In this document: piece after piece, positions 1-10,162 of the stretch
How the letters are laid out: every line of letters starts with the position of its first letter
Position numbering within the stretch: position 1 is the stretch's first letter
Origin: an uncultured Nitrososphaerota archaeon
GTDB lineage: Archaea; Asgardarchaeota; Njordarchaeia; Njordarchaeales; Panguiarchaeaceae
Assembly: GCA_964636085.1 (NCBI GenBank)
Contig: CAZWPQ010000051.1
Coordinates: 1-10,162, forward strand
DNA length: 10,162 nt
Reading direction: 5' to 3'
Position numbers and translations under genes: made by a program
Notes under the pieces: model-generated
Databases searched by the model: none
Told to the model about the DNA's origin: nothing
What the model saw: only the letters and a program-made list of their open reading frames with translations

Positions 1-158
1 CCCCGCCAGTATCTCCTCCCAAACCCCCTCCCCCAAAAGCCCCATTGAGAATAATTATTGCCCCTATAAACAGCATTTAGCCACAACCAATAGCATATTC
101 CTCTACCCCTTCCTCTACCTCTACCTCTACCACGAGGCCACCAACCATACCACGGCAT
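1..158 (-). CDS. RG-repeat, Trp/Tyr-rich low-complexity small protein (DUF5320-like composition); 3' end runs off the window
   Basis: Not in the ORF track. Manual translation from ATG 158 gives MPWYGWWPRGRGRGRGRGRGICYWLWLNAVYRGNNYSQWGFWGRGFGRRYWRG..., open to base 1. A GGTGG RBS lies just upstream, and there is an alternative in-frame ATG at 170. Confidence 0.8.
   Translation of the reverse strand, partial: MPWYGWWPRGRGRGRGRGRGICYWLWLNAVYRGNNYSQWGFWGRGFGRRYWR
112..131. repeat. (CCTCTA)3+ hexamer tandem repeat encoding part of the (RG)n tract
   Basis: Three exact CCTCTA copies at 112-129, with degenerate copies extending to about 100. Confidence 0.7.
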
Positions 159-184
159 CTTTACCACCATGATTATTCTTCATA

Positions 185-210
185 TTATAAATTTAATTAT
201 AACATTATAA
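185..210 (-). promoter_or_regulatory. Promoter/operator of the RG-repeat gene: TTATAA-N6-TTATAA-CA-TTATAA
   Basis: TTATAA at 185, 197 and 205. Bases 182-209 match 1309-1336 at 23/28 positions. The element overlaps a minus-strand TTTATAAT TATA candidate (191-184). Confidence 0.5.
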
Positions 211-222
211 CTCATTTTCAAA

Positions 223-564
223 TTATTTCTCCTTTATAATTTGACCAGATAAAATATCTATAACCACCCTCCTTATCGTTACCCTCCAAACTTTCTCTGG
301 CGCTCCTCCCTTTCCCGTCTCTCTATATCCCGAAACTTCAATAATACCCATTCTCTCAAGCTCACTTAAGTGGTAATAAAGTAGGGATCTAGGGATACTA
401 ACACCATAGTTCATCGCAAGCTCCCTAAATATCTCGCTAGTTGATTTCTCCCTATCCCCAATGATTCTGAGAATTGCCCAGCGTATCCCAGTAAATGCTG
501 CCAAAAAGTTGTTGTAGTAGTTTCTCCAACAACCCTGCAGTCGCCATCTCCTTCTCCTCATCAA
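223..564 (-). CDS. ArsR-like winged helix-turn-helix transcriptional regulator with an Arg-rich N-terminus
   Basis: IRWAILRII...KSTSEI...IPRSLLYYHLSELERMGII helix-turn-helix, followed by a GGAPEKVWRV wing. GGTGA lies 6 nt before TTG 564; ATG 561 is an alternative start. Confidence 0.85.
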   Translation of the reverse strand: MMRRRRWRLQGCWRNYYNNFLAAFTGIRWAILRIIGDREKSTSEIFRELAMNYGVSIPRSLLYYHLSELERMGIIEVSGYRETGKGGAPEKVWRVTIRRVVIDILSGQIIKEK

Positions 565-570
565 TACCCT

Positions 571-864
571 TCACCGCCCTCTCCTTCGCCTTCTTCTTCG
601 TCCTCCCCGCATCCCTCGGCCACCGTAGTACATTCCGCCATAATATCTTGGAGGCCCTTGATAGTACACATTTCTATTTAAAATGGGGACTGACTTATCA
701 GCATTACTTGATCGCGGTTGTAAATCGTATACATGAGCTGAATTAATGGCTGATATGCGTCTCAATACATAGTATAGTATGGCTAGGATTACTATTATAC
801 CGATAACGATTGCAATATAGGGAGGAAAAACAAAAAAAGATTCTAAGGATAACATTTCCATCAC
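571..864 (-). CDS. Small single-pass membrane protein with a C-terminal Tyr/Gly/Arg low-complexity tail
   Basis: Hydrophobic IAIVIGIIVILAILYYVL followed by RR; tail YYQGPPRYYGGMYYGGRGMRGGRRRRRRRGR. Tightly packed between its neighbours. The more likely start is ATG 855 (GGTGA 5 nt upstream). Confidence 0.75.
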   Translation of the reverse strand: MMEMLSLESFFVFPPYIAIVIGIIVILAILYYVLRRISAINSAHVYDLQPRSSNADKSVPILNRNVYYQGPPRYYGGMYYGGRGMRGGRRRRRRRGR

Positions 865-869
865 CTAGC

Positions 870-1268
870 CTAATAAATCATGCCTGGGCCTCTCCACCCC
901 CCACCTCTCCCTCTTCCTCCTCTCGCCCATCCCTTATCTAGCCTGTGGATCATATAATGGGGTGCCCCACAATAGGGACACTGAGCTGGCTTTGGAACAC
1001 CATAAGGTACCTCAATAATCTTATTACAACTATAGCAAAGGAATCTCTTCATGGGGGCTGGAATTCCAGGCGGCGGTGGAGTTTGGGGAGCTGTTGGAGT
1101 TGCTTGAGGAGTAGTAGTTGTACCTGTAGATTTATCATCGAACACCTGTACCAATAGCCCAGGACCTGCTCCACAAAGTGGGCAACGTATAGGATCAGAC
1201 GCGGATTTGGGGATTTCAAAAATACCTCCGCAGTTCATGCATTTGAATTTTTTCATGTCTTTCGACAT
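870..1268 (-). CDS. Tandem CxxC...CxxC metal-ribbon (Zn-ribbon/rubredoxin-like) protein with a Thr/Pro linker and RGG tail
   Basis: Two homologous units (MKKFKCMNC..FEIP..CPLCGA and MKRFLCYSC..IEVP..CPYCGA), linker TGTTTTPQATPTAPQTPPPPGIPAP, tail GWARGGRGRGGGWRG. GGTGA RBS 6 nt upstream. Confidence 0.85.
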   Translation of the reverse strand: MSKDMKKFKCMNCGGIFEIPKSASDPIRCPLCGAGPGLLVQVFDDKSTGTTTTPQATPTAPQTPPPPGIPAPMKRFLCYSCNKIIEVPYGVPKPAQCPYCGAPHYMIHRLDKGWARGGRGRGGGWRGPGMIY

Positions 1269-1301
1269 CCATACTCACCAATAATATATTGTCTATAACC
1301 A

Positions 1302-1337
1302 TTTATAAATATTACAAATATATTTGTAATATTATAG
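1302..1337 (-). promoter_or_regulatory. TATA box (1302-1309) abutting a perfect 26-bp palindrome (1308-1333); putative operator
   Basis: AATATTACAAATATATTTGTAATATT is self-complementary. TTTATAAA lies about 34-41 nt upstream of ATG 1268. Confidence 0.7.
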
Positions 1338-1727: not shown

Positions 1728-4700
1728 CTAAAGACCAGAAGAATAGTGTCTACGAACAACCAACAAGGCAGCAATGACTAAGACAAAAACGATGGCAACA
1801 TAAAACCACAAAAACTCCCTTCCAATAGTTGTAGGAGTCTCTTCAGAAGTCTCTGTAGAGGTCTCAATAGGATAATCATTAGGATCAAGAGGATCAGTAC
1901 CATGCTCGATCTCATAACCATCCTCAAAACCATCATCGTCAGTGTCGGAGTCAAGCGGATCGGTACCATTCTGATACTCACCAAGATTAGACAAGCCATC
2001 ACCATCAACATCACCAGAAGCATCACTAGCATCTAGAGGATCAAGACCATATCCAACCTCCCAGCCATCCGACATACCATCATAATCGCTATCCCAGTTG
2101 AGGGGATCCGTGTTGTGTATAATATATTCCTCACTATCTGTCAAACCATCATCATCTGTATCAGGATCCCATGGATCAGTTCCTATTTGCGCCTCTAAAC
2201 TATTCGATAGCCCATCATTGTCGGAGTCTGGCGTTAGTTCTATTTTGATAAGCCCTGTGGTTCCCCATGATCTCGTGGTGTTTTGTCCGCAGAAAACTAT
2301 GTAGTCTGAGTGGAGAAATAGTTTGTAGCAGTAGATGTAACTTGTGGTGTTGAAGAGCTGTATTGATGTTTCATAGTTCATTGTGGTGCCATCATAATAA
2401 TGTTGCTGAATGTCTCCATACCAGAAATCACCTATTTTGTATGAACCGCTGAATATTAATTCGTCGTCTCCATCAAGATCATAATCATATCTTAAGAAGT
2501 AATATAAGCTGGAGCCCGCCCAACGAATATTTTCCCATACATATTCATACTCAAGATTAATGTTTGATCCATTATAATTTAGTATTAGTATAGCGCCCCA
2601 ATATACATTGCTAGCATTTCTCTCCCTCATATATGTTATTATTTCATCAACCCCATCAGAATCTATGTCCGTTTGAATTATGTGAGTATAGTATCCTCCT
2701 GAAACTTCCGCATATTTAAGCGTCCAAGATGCGTCAGACTCCAAGTAAAAGGAAGAGCCATCATATGTCATGACTCTAACATAGTAGTACCATTGCGTCC
2801 AAGGTTGGCTAGCATAATTTGACTGAACTAGTATCTCTATCTCGCCATCAACGTCGATATCACCTATATATAAACCGCTACCATAAGTAGGATCCGCTTT
2901 GCTCCAGTTTGTCTCGGCTTCTAAGGAGAACTGGGTTCCATCAAAGCTCCAGATGGCCACGTAAGTTCTGAGATCTCCCCACCCAGGTACCGCAATAAGA
3001 GTTCCTACTTCTACTAGTTCTTGCACTCCGTCCATATCTAGGTCTGCCACATAGAAGTGTCCACCACTATAATACTCTGCATTCCTTAGCGTTTGGTTAT
3101 ATAAATATGTTAGGGCACCAGAATCATATTCCAGTACACTCATTTCTATAGTCCATGGTTGGGATCCATAAACCCATATAAGTAATATTTCTTGCCTTCC
3201 ATCGCCATCATAGTCGATTATGCGTAAATAGTATGTTTCCGATTCATCTCTAGGCGTACTCCTAAGCTCCTCCTCTACTGTTAGCTCAGGGTATTGTGTG
3301 TAGTTCTCGAATACTAATACCCACAGATGTCTATAATCATATTCATAAGAAATGCCTAGACATACCATCTCTTCATTATCATCACCGTCAGCATCGTATA
3401 TGTATGAGTCACGTATATGCACAATAACATTGGGTCTCTTCCAGTAGAATGCTACCTTCGTATTGTTGTGTATTTCGATTACCCCAGTATTCCTTTTTGT
3501 GTAGGGTGATGTAGAATTAAAACCTGCTATAAAAATAGTTTCGCCGATGGTTATTGAAGCGTAAAAAATCATTCGGGAACCCAATGGTGCCGTTGCAAGC
3601 TCATACTTGCCCTCGTAATCTATTGATAATCCATTATGCATGAATACCTCCGACATGTACCAAATTTTGTTCTGTGATATGTTACGGTAGTAGCCTAGTG
3701 CAATTATTTCCATATCTGTGTCGTTGTCTATGTCTTTAAATGCAACGGTACGTATGCTATTATCATTCGCATTTGGCTCCCTCCAATTCGTTGCAGCCTC
3801 CATTGTTAAGGCTGAGCCATTATGATTATATATTGCAATTCCAGCTCTGTATATATTATTGCTATTCTCCGTTGTATTTGCTGTCAAGAATGGAGATACT
3901 ATCTCCACGACTCCATCCCCATCAACATCAAAAAACTCTACATCACTCCCAACACCCTCGATACGGTAACCCAATGGGGAGCCATACGAATGAGAAGCCT
4001 CTGTTGTTAGTGTCGTTCCATCCCACCGAAGAATCCTATGATATAAATACCAGTAGGTCCAAGGTTGAGAGGAGTAATGAGATCTGACCACTATTTCTAT
4101 ATCTCCATCAGCATCGACATCATATATTCCACATCCAGAGCAGTATGTAGGGTCGGCGAGAGCCCAGTTCGTTTGAACCTCTTTTACGAAAGCTGAGCCA
4201 TTATACTGCCATATGGCAATGTATGTCCTATAGTCCCCCCAACTTGGGTCATCAAGATATGTTCCAACCTCAACCAACTCATCAACCCCATCGCCATCCA
4301 CATCGCCCCCACAGATTTTCGTAGCACTATAGGTCTCATAGTTTCTTAATTGCTGATTGAATACGTTTGTAAGTCCATAGGAATTATACTCATAAACGTA
4401 TATATAGGAGTCATGATAGTCTCCCCTAGGATACCGTTTTAGAAAGAGTATGTCTTTTTGGCCATTATTATCATAATCAATTACTGTCATCAAACCAGAA
4501 TATTTTATGTCTTCTCTATCCTGTATCAGTGCTTTAGTTGATGCAGATAATGTATATGTCCCTGAATTATTCTCGTACACCAAAATCCAGTAGATATAAT
4601 AATTATACTCCCACGACGAACCCAGTGCAATAATCTCATTCTGTGTGTCACTATCGACATCTTCAATGATTATATAAATGAGCGAATTCGATGTCCTTGG

Positions 4701-4931
4701 CCTCTCCCAGACGATGAGGGTAGTATTATTTTCCATAGAAACACTAGAACTGTAAATATCTGTTTTATCAAAGTATCGTCTATTAGTTTGACCAAGATTT
4801 TTAAAGCCACGAAGCGCCAAATAGTGCAGAGTTTTATTACCTGTACTAGCCGTATTCCGTGGTTTCAAATCAATAATAAGGACCGAGATGGATATGAATA
4901 GCATGGCTAATAATAGATACCTTCTAACCAT
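1728..4931 (-). CDS. Large membrane-anchored cell-surface protein: signal peptide, two FG-GAP/VCBS-like DxDxDG beta-propeller units, Asp-rich thrombospondin-type-3-like repeats, C-terminal TM anchor
   Basis: N-terminal MVRRY plus hydrophobic stretch; 12 DxDxD(G)xxE/D-type hairpins; five DxDxDG[LMF]...E...DP repeats; Ser/Thr/Glu linker; TM FLWFYVAIVFVLVIAALLVV-RR; many N-x-S/T sequons; GGTGA RBS at 4938-4942. Confidence 0.9.
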   Translation of the reverse strand: MVRRYLLLAMLFISISVLIIDLKPRNTASTGNKTLHYLALRGFKNLGQTNRRYFDKTDIYSSSVSMENNTTLIVWERPRTSNSLIYIIIEDVDSDTQNEIIALGSSWEYNYYIYWILVYENNSGTYTLSASTKALIQDREDIKYSGLMTVIDYDNNGQKDILFLKRYPRGDYHDSYIYVYEYNSYGLTNVFNQQLRNYETYSATKICGGDVDGDGVDELVEVGTYLDDPSWGDYRTYIAIWQYNGSAFVKEVQTNWALADPTYCSGCGIYDVDADGDIEIVVRSHYSSQPWTYWYLYHRILRWDGTTLTTEASHSYGSPLGYRIEGVGSDVEFFDVDGDGVVEIVSPFLTANTTENSNNIYRAGIAIYNHNGSALTMEAATNWREPNANDNSIRTVAFKDIDNDTDMEIIALGYYRNISQNKIWYMSEVFMHNGLSIDYEGKYELATAPLGSRMIFYASITIGETIFIAGFNSTSPYTKRNTGVIEIHNNTKVAFYWKRPNVIVHIRDSYIYDADGDDNEEMVCLGISYEYDYRHLWVLVFENYTQYPELTVEEELRSTPRDESETYYLRIIDYDGDGRQEILLIWVYGSQPWTIEMSVLEYDSGALTYLYNQTLRNAEYYSGGHFYVADLDMDGVQELVEVGTLIAVPGWGDLRTYVAIWSFDGTQFSLEAETNWSKADPTYGSGLYIGDIDVDGEIEILVQSNYASQPWTQWYYYVRVMTYDGSSFYLESDASWTLKYAEVSGGYYTHIIQTDIDSDGVDEIITYMRERNASNVYWGAILILNYNGSNINLEYEYVWENIRWAGSSLYYFLRYDYDLDGDDELIFSGSYKIGDFWYGDIQQHYYDGTTMNYETSIQLFNTTSYIYCYKLFLHSDYIVFCGQNTTRSWGTTGLIKIELTPDSDNDGLSNSLEAQIGTDPWDPDTDDDGLTDSEEYIIHNTDPLNWDSDYDGMSDGWEVGYGLDPLDASDASGDVDGDGLSNLGEYQNGTDPLDSDTDDDGFEDGYEIEHGTDPLDPNDYPIETSTETSEETPTTIGREFLWFYVAIVFVLVIAALLVVRRHYSSGL
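1869..2228 (-). repeat. Five Asp-rich Ca-binding-type repeats
   Basis: DSDNDGLS, DTDDDGLT, DSDYDGMS, DVDGDGLS and DTDDDGFE, each followed by E...(T/L)DP. Confidence 0.9.
2235..4709 (-). repeat. Internal tandem duplication of a ~400-420 aa unit (aa ~75-496 and ~497-899)
   Basis: WERP..EIIALGSSWEY matches WKRP..EMVCLGISYEY. ELVEVGT..PxWGDxRTY, TNWxxADPTY and SQPWTxWY occur in both units. The ends also match: GFNST..TGVIEI and GQNTT..TGLIKI. Confidence 0.9.
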
Positions 4932-5052: not shown

Positions 5053-5292
5053 CTATATTTTATATAAAATCTTGCAATGCGTTCGTCTACCGAGAAGGTT
5101 TCCAAGGCCATATGTTCCAGGTAGATCAACAAATCTTATCCTGTAGCCTCCTAAAATTTTCTCGCCCTCTTTCTTTTCGACCGCAACACATTGCCAGTTT
5201 CCCACATATTGTTTTGCCCAAGTTAGCTCATTAAAAAGAGTGGACTTTCCAACATTTGGGTTTCCAATAACTGCGACTGTTATATCCTTCAT
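5053..5292 (-). pseudogene. feoB: Truncated, degenerate ferrous iron transporter FeoB (N-terminal part of the GTPase domain only)
   Basis: G1 GNPNVGKS and G3 DLPG are present. The consensus LTG..VGNWPGVTVE reads LTW..VGNWQCVAVE here, so the G2 Thr is lost. After a frameshift near 5100 another frame continues SVDERIARFYI, then homology stops. There is no G4 motif or membrane domain. Confidence 0.9.
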
Positions 5293-5535
5293 TGGCCACC
5301 ACCTAGTTTCTTAACCTTAATATAACGAGCCTCCGACCTCCTCAAAGACAGGAAATAATTCCTAAGCTTGAACTCTATTGGGTCACCAATAGATGGCCCA
5401 GCCATCTCCACAACGACACCACGAATAAGGCCCTATAGCGAACCTCATCTTTAGATTTAATGGTGTCTCTTCATCATAGCCAACAACATCGGCAATTTCG
5501 CCCTTTTTGAGCTCTTCCAACCTAATTACATCCAT
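5289..5535 (-). pseudogene. feoA: Frameshifted second FeoA
   Basis: Not in the ORF track. ATG 5535 (GAGGAGG RBS) gives MDVIRLEELKKGEIADVVGY...MRFAI and stops at 5383. Shifting frame near 5433 gives GLIRGVVVEM..GDPIEFKLRNYFLSLRRSEARYIKV, ending in a TGA that overlaps the feoB ATG (ATGA). Confidence 0.85.
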
Positions 5536-5841
5536 TTAAATCCTCCTCACATAAATTTTCATAGCCATCCCAAAACCAATAGCAAATCTCGACTCACCTA
5601 TCTGTATCATGATCCCACCTGACCCCCTCCACAATACTCTAACCCTAACTCCAGGGACTATATTCATCCCAGCAATCTTACTCCTCATTCCTCTTCTAGC
5701 AAACACACGAACAACTATTCCTTCCTCACCAACATTGAGCATTGCTAAGGGAATCACATTTCCTACTCTTATATCAATACTAGATAAACTATATGCCAAC
5801 CGTCTAGCCCCCCATCGCGACAAGCCATGCACCAGAATCAT
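5536..5841 (-). CDS. feoA: Ferrous iron transport protein A (SH3-like)
   Basis: IPLAMLNVGEEGIVVRV...MNIVPGVRVRV...IGESRFAIGFGMAMKIYV. The start is uncertain: GTG 5757 gives a typical 73-aa FeoA, while ATG 5841 adds 28 aa. Confidence 0.85.
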   Translation of the reverse strand: MILVHGLSRWGARRLAYSLSSIDIRVGNVIPLAMLNVGEEGIVVRVFARRGMRSKIAGMNIVPGVRVRVLWRGSGGIMIQIGESRFAIGFGMAMKIYVRRI

Positions 5842-5874
5842 TTAGATTAATCTAATTTTATTAGAATTATCTAA
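5842..5874. promoter_or_regulatory. Tandem DtxR-family-type operators TTAGA-N4-TCTAA
   Basis: Perfect palindrome TTAGATTAATCTAA (5842-5855) and TTAGAATTATCTAA (5861-5874), 19-bp period. They lie just downstream of the minus-strand TTTATAAA (5881-5888) and resemble TTAG-N6-CTAA boxes of DtxR-family regulators. Confidence 0.8.
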
Positions 5875-6005: not shown

Positions 6006-6452
6006 GTGTTGGAGATAGCAATGCTTGGGACTGAAAAAATAACAAGAGCCCTGGAGGATTGTCTGGAAGCTATGTTGATTCTGAAGAATAAGAAGGGATA
6101 TATCAGGCTTAGGGACTTATCAGATATGCTTAATATTGCCCCAAGTTCTGTTGTTAGTGTGTTGAAGAGGCTTGAGAAATTGGGATACATCAGATATATT
6201 AAAAGGGAAGCTATACTGCTCACCGAAAAAGGCGAAAAGACCGCCAGCAAGATTCTCGATAAGCATCTTACTATTAAGAGATTTCTCCAGCATGTATTAT
6301 TCTTGCCTGAGGATATCGCAGATAGTGATGCCTGTGTTATTGAGCATAGGGTTCACGACATAACAATACAAAGACTAAAAGCCTTAACCAAAATCGTTCT
6401 GGGCGACCCAGATTTGAGGAAAAAAATTTCCGAGGGAGTTAGGGGGGTATAG
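6006..6452 (+). CDS. DtxR/MntR-family metal-dependent transcriptional regulator (two-domain, no C-terminal SH3)
   Basis: EDCLEAM, HTH LRDLSDMLNIAPSSVVSVLKRL, LTEKG, KH and DACVIEH metal-site motif. Divergent from feo. ATG 6021 (GGAG upstream) is a likely alternative start. Confidence 0.92.
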   Translation: MLEIAMLGTEKITRALEDCLEAMLILKNKKGYIRLRDLSDMLNIAPSSVVSVLKRLEKLGYIRYIKREAILLTEKGEKTASKILDKHLTIKRFLQHVLFLPEDIADSDACVIEHRVHDITIQRLKALTKIVLGDPDLRKKISEGVRGV

Positions 6453-6476: not shown

Positions 6477-7421
6477 ATGGATAAGTTTAAATATGTTTTT
6501 GGGCCTGTCCCATCACGCAGACTTGGCTATTCACTGGGTATTAATAACTTGCCATCTAAAATATGCTCGTATTCCTGCATATATTGCCAGTTAGGTGCAA
6601 CAAAAGCTTTGACAATTAGGAGATATGGTTACTCGGATCCAGATAGGATTGTGGATGAGATTCTTACCGTGTTGAAAAAGGATGTGAATGTGGACTACAT
6701 AACATTTGTCCCAAATGGCGAACCTACCCTGGATCTTAATCTGGGGAAGATTGTAGAAACTCTTAGAGAAGAGACAGCTAAGCCACTAGCGATACTTACC
6801 AATGCATCATTAATCTGGATGAGTGATGTTTTTGATGATCTTCTTAAATTCGACCTAGTATCAATAAAAATTGATGCTACCATGGACTTATGGCGCCAAG
6901 TGAATAGGCCGCACCCTGACCTTGAATACGATCGCGTCTTGGAAGGGATCATGAATTTTTCCGAGACATACGATAGAGAAATAATAACAGAAACAATGTT
7001 AATACACCATATTAACACATCTAGGGGCACTCTAGAGAACATCGCTACAGTCATCCAAGACATCAAACCAAAGAAGGCATATTTATCAATACCTATCAGG
7101 CCGCCTACGGAGAATTGGGTTAAGAAACCCACTGAAGAAGAACTAGTCCTAGCATACGCGGTTTTTTCTAGGAAAATAGGAGAAGATAGAGTCGAAATAT
7201 TGGGGCATCTAGAACCATTTGACTTTCAAGTGCGTGACGATCCCATAGGATACATACTTGCAACAACAAGAGTGCATCCACTCAGTATAGAGTATGCAAA
7301 GAAAATATTGTCTAAATGTGGACTAGACCCAGAAAAAGTCCTACAAAAACTCTTTGACAAACAACTAATCAAGATCGTGGAGTTCGAAGACAAAAAATTC
7401 ATATTAGCTAGGATTCATTAA
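6477..7421 (+). CDS. Radical SAM Fe-S protein (COG0731-type, FGPVPSRRLG family)
   Basis: FGPVPSRRLGYSLG, CSYSCIYC (CxxxCxxC), GEPTL, LTN, SIKIDA and ETML motifs. Starts 24 nt after the dtxR stop. Confidence 0.92.
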   Translation: MDKFKYVFGPVPSRRLGYSLGINNLPSKICSYSCIYCQLGATKALTIRRYGYSDPDRIVDEILTVLKKDVNVDYITFVPNGEPTLDLNLGKIVETLREETAKPLAILTNASLIWMSDVFDDLLKFDLVSIKIDATMDLWRQVNRPHPDLEYDRVLEGIMNFSETYDREIITETMLIHHINTSRGTLENIATVIQDIKPKKAYLSIPIRPPTENWVKKPTEEELVLAYAVFSRKIGEDRVEILGHLEPFDFQVRDDPIGYILATTRVHPLSIEYAKKILSKCGLDPEKVLQKLFDKQLIKIVEFEDKKFILARIH

Positions 7422-7567: not shown

Positions 7568-8029
7568 TTGGAGATAAGATTGAAATATAAAATAGACAAT
7601 ATCAATGAAATCGTGGATAAAATCAGATCAGCATTGCTGAAATTCCCATATTCAACACATATAAAATATGCTATCCTTTTTGGTTCCACTATACATGATT
7701 CCACACACCATGAAAGTGACATAGATGTCTTGGTAAGAGTCGATGAAAAGAGCGACATAATTAATTTGGTCGTGGAGCTAACATTCTTTATCTCTAAGGA
7801 ATTATGTGTGAAGGAAGATTACGTTGATATTCTACCTATTAAGAAGAAAAACGATGTTCCATATGATATGCTTTATGACATATATACAAATGGCATAACA
7901 ATCATCATAAATGATAGAGATACATACCATAGGGATTTTGTTAGGGCCATTTCACTCTACTGCGACCTGCAAATATTCCTTAGAAAACATAATGCTGTAG
8001 GGAATTTCCTTAGGATTCTGAGGGGCTGA
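7568..8029 (+). CDS. mntA: Minimal nucleotidyltransferase (MNT), MntA-type antitoxin
   Basis: LFGS-TIHDSTHHES-DID matches GSX10DXD, with a later VD. Directly upstream of a HEPN gene. TTG start at 7568 or 7580. Confidence 0.85.
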   Translation: MEIRLKYKIDNINEIVDKIRSALLKFPYSTHIKYAILFGSTIHDSTHHESDIDVLVRVDEKSDIINLVVELTFFISKELCVKEDYVDILPIKKKNDVPYDMLYDIYTNGITIIINDRDTYHRDFVRAISLYCDLQIFLRKHNAVGNFLRILRG

Positions 8030-8031
8030 CC

Positions 8032-8460
8032 TTGATAGCATATGATTTATATGCTGTCATAGCAAAAAATGTAGCCGAGCTTGATAAGCTACTCGAAAAA
8101 ATGAGCATTGATGAAATACTGGACAACTATATTACTTTTCATGGTGTCGTTCATGTCCTTCAAATAATCATTCAGGCCTTAATAGACCTTGGGCAATATG
8201 TCATATCTATAAAAGGACAGAAACCACCCTCAACTTACTCTGAAATCCCCCTAATCTTAAAAGATCTAGAGGTAATAACGAAAAGCGAAGCCAGCCAATT
8301 CAGAAAAATGATTGGATTTAGAAACATCATCGTTCATAGGTATACTGATCTAAATCTTACAATAATAGAAAAAATACTCGCTAATAAGCTCTATAAGAAC
8401 GCACTAGAAATCTCAAAAAAACTTGTAATAGCGTCAAAAACAAATAGCAAAACAACATAA
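8032..8460 (+). CDS. hepT: HEPN (DUF86) RNase toxin, HepT-type
   Basis: GFRNIIVHRY matches RX4HXY; LQIIIQALID and PxTYxE motifs; 2 nt after the MNT stop. Confidence 0.88.
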   Translation: MIAYDLYAVIAKNVAELDKLLEKMSIDEILDNYITFHGVVHVLQIIIQALIDLGQYVISIKGQKPPSTYSEIPLILKDLEVITKSEASQFRKMIGFRNIIVHRYTDLNLTIIEKILANKLYKNALEISKKLVIASKTNSKTT

Positions 8461-8749: not shown

Positions 8750-10162
8750 CTACTCTAGAATAGCGTCGATAGCATCTCTATCAATCTCATGAATCATCGG
8801 AATACCAAGAACCTCCTTAGCATGAGGAGTCAATGCAGCAAGCAGAGAACGATCAAGCAAGTCAAGCTTAAATCTTCTAGCACCCGCCATCAACTGCTTA
8901 AGGCCCACACCAATGTACTCAGCATAGGAATAGATACCAATAGCACCATGCGGGATCTTCTTAACCCTATCACCAAACTTCTGCTTCAACTCATGATATA
9001 CAGCAAATATACTCTCCACCCTACCGCCATACACCTCAGCAAACGCCTTGTTACGCTTGGCTAGCTCACCCTTCTCAGCCCACTCGCCATAAAGCTTAGC
9101 CTTGAACACGGCAGTAAGTATAGGCTTAGCCATAGCAACAGCACGCACAAATGGGCCAGGACCACCATTAGGCCACCTACTAAGAGCAATAGTCTTAAAG
9201 ATCTGTGTAGAATCGATGAAACCACCAGCCATCATAATATGTGGGACATGCTTACCCTTCTTCCAGAGCCTATAAGCAGCTTCGAGGATATAAGCCTCCA
9301 TGTAGATCGTAGGAACGCCCTGCTCAAGCATCATCGGCCATGGCGACATGCCTGTTCCTCCTGGTTGGCCGTCGAAGGTGACGTAGTCGAGTTTTGCTTC
9401 TGATGCTACTTTGAGGGCCCAGACGGTTACTGCGGGTCTGTATTGGCCCATTTTTAGGCCTACGATTTTTGCTCCTTGTTCTCTTAGTTTTTCTATGTCT
9501 TCTACGAAGCCTTCTAGTGTTGGCATTCCTAGTCTTGAGTGTCTTTCGAAACTCCTTATTGTTCCTGCTTTGAATGCTTCTTGTACCGCTGGGTCTCTTG
9601 GGTCTGGTATTACTATATATCCTCTTTCTGCTAGCATTTTTGCTTTTTCTAGGTCGAAGATTCTTACCTCCCCCCCTATCGATTTTGCTCCTTGTCCCCA
9701 TTTTCTTTCTATTACGTTAACCTCTAGTTTTGTTATTGCGTATATGTCTACTCCTAGTCTTTGGTCTTCTACATTTGTTTGTACTGCTATGTCTCCCCAT
9801 TCTCCATCCCACCACTCTCTGAATGCATCTACTCTCCTCTTCATGTCTGGTGAGTCCTGTACTTTTCCATTACTTATTACTGAGTTGGGATCCATCCCGC
9901 ATACGTTTTCTCCGATTACTGTGAGTATCCCTGCTATTGCTGCTCCACCATAGATATGTTCTGCATTTTTGGCCGCTACTTTTGTTGAGCCTAATGCCGC
10001 TATTGTTATAGGTACTTTAAGCTTTACCCTATGTTTGAATCCGAGGTATGTTGTGATGTCTACGTGATCAAATATTGCTTTGTCAGGGTCTCGAAATTCC
10101 TCGGGGAATGTTGCTTCTTTTCTGACATCGCTCATTATTTGTATGTCTGCCCAGTCTAGGCC
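8750..10162 (-). CDS. Stand-alone FMN-binding glutamate synthase family protein; 5' end lies beyond the window
   Basis: PITIAALGS, IERKWGQGAKSIGGE, LKMG, DYVTFDGQPGGTGMSP and MAGG...IFKTIAL FMN-barrel motifs. The frame stays open upstream of ATG 10135 (GLDWADIQI) to the edge. Confidence 0.9.
   Translation of the reverse strand, partial: GLDWADIQIMSDVRKEATFPEEFRDPDKAIFDHVDITTYLGFKHRVKLKVPITIAALGSTKVAAKNAEHIYGGAAIAGILTVIGENVCGMDPNSVISNGKVQDSPDMKRRVDAFREWWDGEWGDIAVQTNVEDQRLGVDIYAITKLEVNVIERKWGQGAKSIGGEVRIFDLEKAKMLAERGYIVIPDPRDPAVQEAFKAGTIRSFERHSRLGMPTLEGFVEDIEKLREQGAKIVGLKMGQYRPAVTVWALKVASEAKLDYVTFDGQPGGTGMSPWPMMLEQGVPTIYMEAYILEAAYRLWKKGKHVPHIMMAGGFIDSTQIFKTIALSRWPNGGPGPFVRAVAMAKPILTAVFKAKLYGEWAEKGELAKRNKAFAEVYGGRVESIFAVYHELKQKFGDRVKKIPHGAIGIYSYAEYIGVGLKQLMAGARRFKLDLLDRSLLAALTPHAKEVLGIPMIHEIDRDAIDAILE

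Follow-up and report, generated by a model that had tools for sequence, protein, structure and literature searches.

The window analyzed here is a 10,162-bp stretch of DNA that makes up the entire contig CAZWPQ010000051.1 (C51) of a metagenome-assembled genome (MAG; GCA_964636085.1, 83% complete, 2.41-Mb assembly) from an uncultured Asgard archaeon of the Njordarchaeota. Its left end carries four co-oriented genes on the minus strand whose products bear cationic, Arg/Gly/aromatic-rich arms, and these genes are the promoter-proximal half of an eight-gene co-directional cluster. In order, the cluster encodes a zinc-ribbon/RGG protein, a membrane anchor with an Arg-rich tail, a winged helix-turn-helix (wHTH) regulator with an R/W arm, an R/G/W-armed protein and then, on the abutting contig C25, a tail-less NifX-like protein, two MinD-ferredoxin ATPases and, as its last member, an Mrp/NBP35 carrier. 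We lean toward reading this locus as a lineage-specific (Njordarchaeal) iron-sulfur (Fe-S) module of the ORP/IssA type, in which IssA-like tails would be provided in trans, a membrane anchor carrying one of them. The reading builds on the observed gene order, contig junction, conservation and co-occurrence of the genes, and on the observed conservation of an operator. IssA (SipA, PF2025) of Pyrococcus furiosus is a thioferrate iron-sulfur storage protein that assembles into particles (PMC5524996).

Armed proteins and the Fe-S genes that follow them

The original prediction had described four consecutive, co-oriented genes with cationic R/G/aromatic arms, and every motif that it quoted is present. 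Intergenic gaps among the four are 5, 9, and 64 nt. Judged from sequence, the four open reading frames (ORFs) are real genes, each having protein-level relatives with the same type of arm in other Njordarchaeota MAGs.

The promoter-proximal ORF (positions 870 to 1268, minus strand) encodes the 132-aa zinc-ribbon/RGG protein, which has two CxxC...CPxCG ribbons of the zinc-ribbon or rubredoxin-like kind, a Pro/Thr-rich linker between them, and an RGG/Trp tail (residues 110 to 132) ending in GWARGGRGRGGGWRG. The protein scored at about the cut-off of Pfam Zn_ribbon_8 and of the NCBIfam FmdB-type ribbon (TIGR02605 on ribbon 1, 31.5 bits versus a cut-off of 31.3); this profile match and the two CxxC knuckles per ribbon place it with the FmdB-type CxxC_CxxC/PF27353 ribbons, and PF27353 is the precomputed family label on the protein and all of its homologs. 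AlphaFold2 (AF2), used with the family alignment, predicted two independent ribbons (predicted local distance difference test [pLDDT] of 80 to 90) and a linker and tail with pLDDT of <50. Matches in the ESM Atlas had scores of ≤0.86 and serve as a lead only. Four other Njordarchaeota genera or families have relatives of the protein. Among 15 relatives, ribbon 2 hardly varies, and the tail, which varies in sequence and length, is conserved in kind and always R/G/W(Y,F)-rich.

The second ORF (571 to 864, minus strand) encodes a 97-aa protein with a short acidic N terminus, one hydrophobic helix of about 25 aa, a Q/S/P/Y linker and an R-rich C-terminal tail, which reads YYGG..YYGGRGMRGG and then R7 (net charge of +12). 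Because of the positive-inside rule, this tail should face the cytoplasm. Profile searches assigned the protein to no Pfam or NCBIfam family. Genes of the same layout, with R/W/F/G(Y) tails, stand at the equivalent position in six other loci (L015, L016, L017, L019, L022, and L064). The third ORF (223 to 564, alternatively 223 to 561, minus strand) encodes the ArsR-like wHTH regulator, which begins MRRRRWR and carries the N-terminal Arg/Trp arm MRRRRWRLQGCWR.

The fourth gene is truncated by the contig end. Its window part (positions 3 to 158, minus strand, in an ORF that reaches to 170) probably starts with the ATG at 158, which is preceded by GGTGG, and encodes the N-terminal 52 residues, starting MPWYGWWP(RG)6, of a protein of about 158 aa (arm net charge of +11). 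The Q/N-rich linker and the folded C-terminal domain are encoded on C25, at whose end lies a 5'-open minus-strand ORF for the C-terminal part of a family with R/G/W N-terminal arms. C51 begins with two spare bases and C25 finishes with one, which together make exactly one codon. Because the frame is kept across the abutment and a public homolog (P0064, 158 aa) spans it without a gap (77% identity of residues 1 to 52 to the window ORF, 52% identity of residues 53 to 158 to the C25 ORF), sequence comparison establishes, short of a PCR, that C25 abuts the left end of C51.

All relatives of the R/G/W-armed protein start with 25 to 60 residues of R/G/W. AF2 predicted that residues 1 to 73 (arm and linker) are disordered (pLDDT of <50) and that the C-terminal domain comprises 78 residues in a helix and five strands (alpha+beta; pLDDT of >90). 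This domain has no Pfam match, and Foldseek returned no structural relative in the PDB at an E value of ≤1e-3; with VIA-align the best Z was 4.2, and PepSY/cystatin-like entries (YpeB, YpmB, and UipA) had Z of about 3. The domain family comprises 19 clusters among 1.84 billion representatives. In some of its members (P0071 and P0076 to P0080) the arm gives way to Cys-rich runs (CCCGC-type) together with a signal peptide or membrane helix, which hints that the domain may also work outside the cytoplasm.

On C25 the genes are tightly packed and continue on the same strand, the R/G/W gene ending 3 nt before the gene for the 114-aa NifX-like protein (L030 15099 to 15443; PF02579, 59.7 bits). The two ATPases follow (L030 14203 to 15102 and 13325 to 14206; NCBIfam MinD/ParA P-loop and ferredoxin-type models); both are of the MinD/CbiA type with an inserted 2x[4Fe-4S] ferredoxin domain, and their orthologs in L022 match Pfam CbiA and Fer4. 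The 278-aa Mrp/NBP35 carrier matches ParA/NUBPL at 313 bits, NCBIfam MrpORP at 315 bits, and ApbC at 238 bits. NifX and MinD-ferredoxin genes had been expected to the left of the window, and both lie on the abutting contig, with Mrp in addition. PF02579 has no match among the four window proteins, as had been stated earlier, and the five NifX-domain proteins of this 83%-complete genome all lack an R/G/aromatic tail.

Two further expectations for the region to the left did not hold. DUF134 had no match in this 83%-complete genome, and the place of DUF5320 is taken by the R/G/W protein, which is only DUF5320-like (PF17253, 13.7 bits against a cut-off of 27; 12.9 bits in the whole-genome search) and has a different folded C-terminal domain. 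Elsewhere in the genome, the best sub-threshold DUF5320 match (C5, 23.5 bits) fell in a 287-aa multi-pass membrane protein that has a Gly-rich stretch and appears unrelated.

Arg, Gly and aromatic residues make up 73%, 63%, 77%, and 70% of the four arms (net charges of +11, +6, +12, and +4), versus 22% of a proxy proteome of the genome. Their basic residues are nearly all Arg, with Lys and the acidic residues Asp/Glu scarcely represented. When all six frames of the whole 2.41-Mb assembly were scanned, just 10 segments passed our R/G/aromatic threshold; the three highest scorers belong to three neighboring genes of the cluster, and we roughly estimate a probability of 1e-5 to 1e-4 that 3 of 10 segments would fall within 1.3 kb by chance. 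The clustering of the arms is thus real and far beyond chance. The arm of the regulator is R/W-rich with little Gly, a type related but not identical to the others. The original prediction was to be given up if the arms were not conserved in orthologs; they are kept in kind in all four families.

We consider it unlikely that the likeness of the arms is partly coincidental, the membrane tail being a positive-inside or lipid anchor, the regulator arm a feature of its own family, and only the ribbon and R/G/W proteins sharing a DUF5320/IssA-like role. Such an account draws on the R7 run beside the membrane, which dominates the membrane tail, on a word search in which the membrane protein had no sequence homologs, and on the regulator arm, which is Gly-poor and recurs on a stand-alone paralog. 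It is opposed by the arms of all four families, which in every ortholog seen remain Arg-only and acid-free with W/Y/F, and by the YYGG/RGG or W/F motifs of the membrane tail, which extend as far as 35 residues beyond the helix. The adjacency of the genome's three strongest R/G/aromatic segments also runs counter to it, as do the separate operator copies of the membrane and R/G/W genes in L022.

The Fe-S neighborhood recurs in other genomes. The cassette of R/G/W protein, NifX-like protein and two MinD-ferredoxin ATPases has the same order in seven genomes of the Njordarchaeal order. A 6.4-kb contig from another family (L022) encodes a wHTH, DtxR, the membrane R-tail protein, the R/G/W protein, NifX, two MinD-ferredoxin ATPases, DtxR, the zinc-ribbon/RGG protein and a radical SAM protein. 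In a MAG of the same genus, the ribbon/membrane/regulator trio is followed by a fusion of a cation-diffusion-facilitator to NifX (CDF::NifX) and by the ortholog of the radical SAM gene. A gene directly downstream of the trio in a same-genus MAG (L015 4386 to 5669) has two copies in the present genome, on contig C13 (L032 and L033).

Beyond the Njordarchaeota, seven Methanocaldococcus/Methanococci loci have the ribbon/RG-tail gene directly after a DUF5320-like gene (MFGWGRGFGRRFW..., with a coiled-coil C terminus), as read from the sequences of five of the seven and a Pfam run on one. Methanocaldococcus sp. 16A, whose genome is complete, has a single PF02579 gene, at a distance of 5.2 kb from its ribbon/DUF5320-like pair. 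A Thermoprotei MAG has the ribbon gene among two DUF5320-like genes, Mrp and DUF134, and in Methanomethylicota it stands beside NifX, two MinD-ferredoxin genes and a radical SAM gene. An operon of a DUF5320-type gene (MPRGDRTGP..., identified by sequence, with no Pfam run), a ribbon/RG-tail gene and a NifX-like gene was complete in 9 of 80 sediment contigs that had been fetched with the Cys-arm regulator discussed below (among them L086, L090, L091, L092, L097, L108, L123, and L134) and partial in 3 further contigs of that set (partial loci L085, L093, L119, and L144). DtxR lies near these three-gene operons in six cases and FeoA in three. By sequence, the PF27353 ribbon family is a regular member of the DUF5320/NifX neighborhood. 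The original prediction would have been abandoned had the genes not co-occurred elsewhere; across genomes and phyla they are found with NifX, DUF5320-like, Mrp and radical SAM genes.

This neighborhood bears on a rival view of the arms as nucleic-acid binders. Binding of RNA and DNA is well known for RGG/RG repeats and Arg-rich arms, and the ribbon and R/G/W proteins could be RGG-box-type RNA/DNA binders in a cluster that regulates or chaperones nucleic acid, with the regulator arm making extra DNA contacts; the locus would then be an ordinary regulatory cluster. The wHTH is itself a DNA-binding protein, and the profile of the ribbon bears a weak resemblance to RNA polymerase subunit P/Rpo12 and to a "Zn-ribbon RNA-binding protein" model. 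However, the repeated neighbors in several archaeal phyla are NifX-like, MinD-ferredoxin, Mrp, DtxR, CDF::NifX and radical SAM genes, RNA-processing genes are not among the conserved ones, and one of the arms is tethered to the membrane. We therefore regard nucleic-acid binding as an improbable explanation of the locus.

The regulator and its candidate operator

A perfect 26-bp palindrome, 100% complementary and reading AATATTACAAATA and then TATTTGTAATATT, lies at positions 1308 to 1333 (strandless) upstream of the ribbon gene, where it overlaps TATA-like elements, and is a candidate operator. The core promoter and leader (1271 to 1307, minus strand), which we read directly from the sequence and to which we assign a putative function, include a TATA-like element ATTTATAAAT at 1301 to 1310 and a GGTGAG Shine-Dalgarno-like site at 1274 to 1279, ahead of the ATG at 1268. 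The core TTACAAA-N4-TTTGTAA recurs exactly upstream of the orthologous ribbon gene at five loci in four genomes (L015, L016, L018, L019, and L020), and in L022 it stands both ahead of the membrane-protein gene and ahead of the R/G/W gene. By chance the core is expected 0.08 times per window at up to 2 mismatches. Its only exact copy in the 2.41-Mb assembly is that of the window, and matches with one mismatch are scattered. The palindrome is distinct from the DtxR-box-like repeats (TTAGATTAATCTAA) of the feoA-dtxR intergenic region. The operon-encoded wHTH is its probable binder.

Membership of the regulator in the ArsR/SmtB winged-helix family is marginal but consistent: HTH_5 scored 22.9 bits (cut-off, 22), HTH_20 scored 26.3 bits (cut-off, 27), and its profile distantly matches HlyU/ArsR structures (E value of about 2e-3). 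The arms of close relatives read RRGRRVW, RRRRRWGRR, RRMRWGR, and RRWGRGRGPWW. More distant homologs (45 to 55% identity) have a Cys-rich arm at the same N-terminal place, with an invariant Cys2, a Cys-rich stretch and an invariant HC pair just before helix 1. Inspected by eye in the 12 loci with the longest flanks of 80 metagenome loci fetched, these Cys-arm regulators precede a pair of genes for an ABC-type ATPase and a membrane permease, and a gene for a small Cys-rich protein precedes the regulator in several of the 12.

The unit of Cys-arm ArsR-type regulator, ABC-type ATPase and permease is conserved in the loci inspected (L071, L074, L078, L083, L090, L121, and others), and in several loci the protein encoded upstream is helical and about 55 aa long. 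The unit resembles an export operon that senses a metal or metalloid and is abundant, with at least 438 tblastn-confirmed matches. Because the sister-clade arm at the same place is Cys-rich and apparently ligand-sensing, a sensing role would, by analogy, fit the R/W arm better than pure DNA contact; the Cys-rich arm, which suits ligand sensing and not DNA contact, also counts against the nucleic-acid alternative. As a feature of its own family, the regulator arm may serve in sensing or in DNA contact rather than as an assembly tag.

A paralog of the regulator on contig C18 (L002 1318 to 1671), with the arm RRRRRRWRW, sits by itself, flanked by a TiaS-like gene and RtcB, and no copy of the operator is found upstream of it. 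In a MAG of the same genus (L017) the whole ribbon/membrane/regulator trio adjoins the same TiaS-like and RtcB genes, an arrangement that suggests that two genes were lost or relocated at the C18 site in the present genome.

Under the Fe-S reading, in which we infer each step of binding, assembly and sensing, the NifX-like protein, the ATPases and Mrp would make or carry inorganic Fe-S species. The arms, predicted to be disordered in the ribbon and R/G/W proteins (AF2 pLDDT of <50), probably hold anionic Fe-S species: acid-free and rich in Arg, Gly, Trp, and Tyr, they would neutralize and wrap the Fe-S anion in the way suggested for thioferrate and the tail of IssA. The membrane protein would tether part of the assembly to the membrane on its cytoplasmic side, the R/G/W protein would be a soluble tail supplier with a small docking domain, and the ribbon protein would supply a tail on a metal ribbon. 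The wHTH would repress the operon through the 26-bp palindrome, its R/W arm reporting the state of the system or store.

Several points weigh against this reading. Binding of Fe-S or thioferrate by the arms and the identity of the palindrome-binding protein are both inferred, and Arg/Gly/aromatic segments are classic nucleic-acid binders. Two loci of the same genus (L017 and L018) have the trio with no NifX gene nearby, and the Methanocaldococcus pair lies near a NifX-like gene, outside its operon. The C18 paralog bears an arm with no armed neighbors in this genome. A word search with the membrane protein returned only the protein itself, making its "orthologs" positional only, and in an 83%-complete genome a tail-bearing IssA could be missed.

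A bolder version, close to the original prediction, treats the arm as a compositional address that would gather scaffold, tether, ribbon protein and repressor on an Fe-S polyanion, or in an arm-driven condensate at the membrane, with the stored mineral titrating the repressor off its operator. We hold this to be rather unlikely. If true, it would describe a mineral-templated, organelle-like body with product feedback in an Asgard archaeon and, by way of the shared families, in other anaerobic archaea.

Other genes of the window

Between the cluster and the feo/DtxR genes lies a gene for a 1,067-aa integrin-like surface protein (1728 to 4931, minus strand). The protein has a signal anchor at its N terminus, FG-GAP/VCBS-type repeats, bacterial thrombospondin type-3 repeats and a membrane helix at its C terminus. 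Its gene directly follows the feoB stump of a feo locus (5053 to 5841) that looks decayed: feoA is intact (5536 to 5841), and feoB is reduced to a 79-aa N-terminal G-domain stump (5053 to 5292). The only two ORFs between them, short and in different frames (5383 to 5535 and 5289 to 5411), resemble, by eye, a frameshifted second feoA and have no Pfam match. The decay could be real pseudogenization or an assembly error. The divergent feoA-dtxR intergenic region (5842 to 5874) contains two DtxR-box-like inverted repeats, TTAGATTAATCTAA and TTAGAATTATCTAA.

Further to the right are genes for a DtxR-type iron repressor (6006 to 6452, plus strand; Pfam) and a radical SAM protein (6477 to 7421, plus strand), which matches the core Pfam family Radical_SAM only; assignments to NifB, TYW1 or a maturase of ribosomally synthesized and posttranslationally modified peptides (RiPPs) were rejected, the NCBIfam matches being weak and sub-threshold. 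The ortholog of the radical SAM gene lies directly downstream of the ribbon and membrane genes in L016 and L034 and near them in L015 and L042. DtxR lies inside the L022 cluster, and both DtxR and radical SAM genes are recurrent neighbors of the ribbon gene in relatives. Of the earlier suggestion that the nearby feo, DtxR and radical SAM genes fit an Fe/S role, the link to iron is supported by DtxR, feoA and the conserved radical SAM neighbor and not by feoB, of which only the stump is left.

The conserved radical SAM neighbor also invites a RiPP- or antimicrobial-peptide-like reading, in which Arg/Trp-rich products would be matured by the radical SAM enzyme and the membrane protein would serve immunity or export. 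Arg/Trp-rich peptides are typically membrane-active. Nevertheless, all maturase families scored below cut-off, genes for a leader peptide, a protease and an exporter are absent, the armed proteins have conserved folded domains, and their constant partners are Fe-S proteins, all of which makes such a system very improbable.

The right part of the window contains a toxin-antitoxin pair of a nucleotidyltransferase (MNT) and a HepT-like (HEPN) protein (7568 to 8460, plus strand) and a gene for a 461-aa protein (8750 to 10135, minus strand) whose only match, to the glutamate synthase FMN region, is weak and which belongs to no NCBIfam family.

Comparison with known systems

To our knowledge, IssA is the only characterized Fe-S storage protein, and the ORP complex has no defined function. 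For iron and sulfide storage and traffic in strict anaerobes, the locus offers a parts list and a 26-bp operator; on our reading, it is a compact, autoregulated operon that would spread IssA-type tails over several partners, including a membrane anchor and a regulator. The parts list bears on three questions, namely, thioferrate-like binding by the arms, membrane-localized storage, and sensing of the store by the regulator. Particular to this locus are the Asgard host, the membrane-anchored tail, the R/W-arm ArsR-type repressor in the place of DUF134, the small C-terminal domain that replaces the DUF5320 coiled coil, the sharply conserved operator, and the link of the ribbon/RG-tail family to the module across phyla. 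In several archaeal phyla, this widespread and unnamed family is now connected with the DUF5320/NifX module.

The IssA tail is cationic and Gly/aromatic-rich, with W, G, and R conserved in kind and not in sequence, and an electrostatic wrap of anionic thioferrate has been proposed (PMC5524996). The cluster resembles IssA in having a NifX-like (IPR003731/PF02579) protein together with Pro-rich and cationic Gly/aromatic disordered segments of conserved composition. In IssA, however, the tail is fused to the NifX-like domain, whereas here the 114-aa NifX-like protein has no tail and four other proteins carry the arms. Because tail and NifX domain are on different proteins, the cluster is not, on sequence grounds, a member of the IssA family. 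Its mode of action is most likely similar to that of the IssA and ORP systems.

The ORP system of Desulfovibrio vulgaris Hildenborough comprises the MinD-ferredoxin ATPases Orp3 and Orp4, the NifX-like Orp8 and Orp9/MrpORP (PMC6345978; PMC8359166). The C25 half is like this complex in its NifX-like protein, two paralogous ferredoxin-insert ATPases and Mrp/NBP35 carrier, and a dedicated regulator is present as well; the two ATPases with their 2x[4Fe-4S] inserts stand next to the NifX-like gene, as is diagnostic of the ORP type. It differs in that the ORP genes belong to a sigma54/OrpR system, whereas the archaeal cluster has an ArsR-type repressor and a palindromic operator. Unlike MrpORP, the Mrp of the cluster lacks the C-terminal NifX-like (Di-Nase) domain, aligning to profile positions 1 to 250 of 365 and scoring 315 bits where the equivalog cut-off is 450. 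For the ORP complex, no counterpart of the Arg/Gly/Trp-armed proteins has been described.

DUF5320 (PF17253) comprises small R/G-rich proteins encoded beside NifX-like genes. With DUF5320 the R/G/W protein shares an N-terminal "MP(R/W)..G..RG" arm and a position directly upstream of the NifX-like gene, but it carries an alpha+beta domain of about 78 residues where DUF5320 has a C-terminal coiled coil. In other genomes the ribbon family neighbors genuine DUF5320 genes.

The ArsR/SmtB metal-sensing repressors include a type that senses through an N-terminal arm (alpha3N), for example, CadC. The regulator has the same winged-helix core, and its sister clade has a Cys-rich arm and appears to control an ABC exporter. 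Unlike alpha3N sensors, the Njordarchaeal clade replaces the Cys/His positions by an Arg/Trp arm, and classical thiolate metal sensing is therefore unlikely.

Di- and tri-RGG or RG repeats spaced by 0 to 4 residues define the RGG/RG motif. As a pattern match alone, the motif is present in the R/G/W protein ((RG)6), the ribbon tail (RGG-RG-RGG) and the membrane tail (RGMRGG). The (RG)6 and RGG-RG-RGG repeats are, like those of eukaryotes, mixed with aromatics and predicted to be disordered. In contrast to the eukaryotic motifs, their context is Fe-S metabolism rather than RNA, and no homology is implied; because the same families occur in Methanococci and Thermoprotei, the likeness marks no link between Asgard archaea and eukaryotes.

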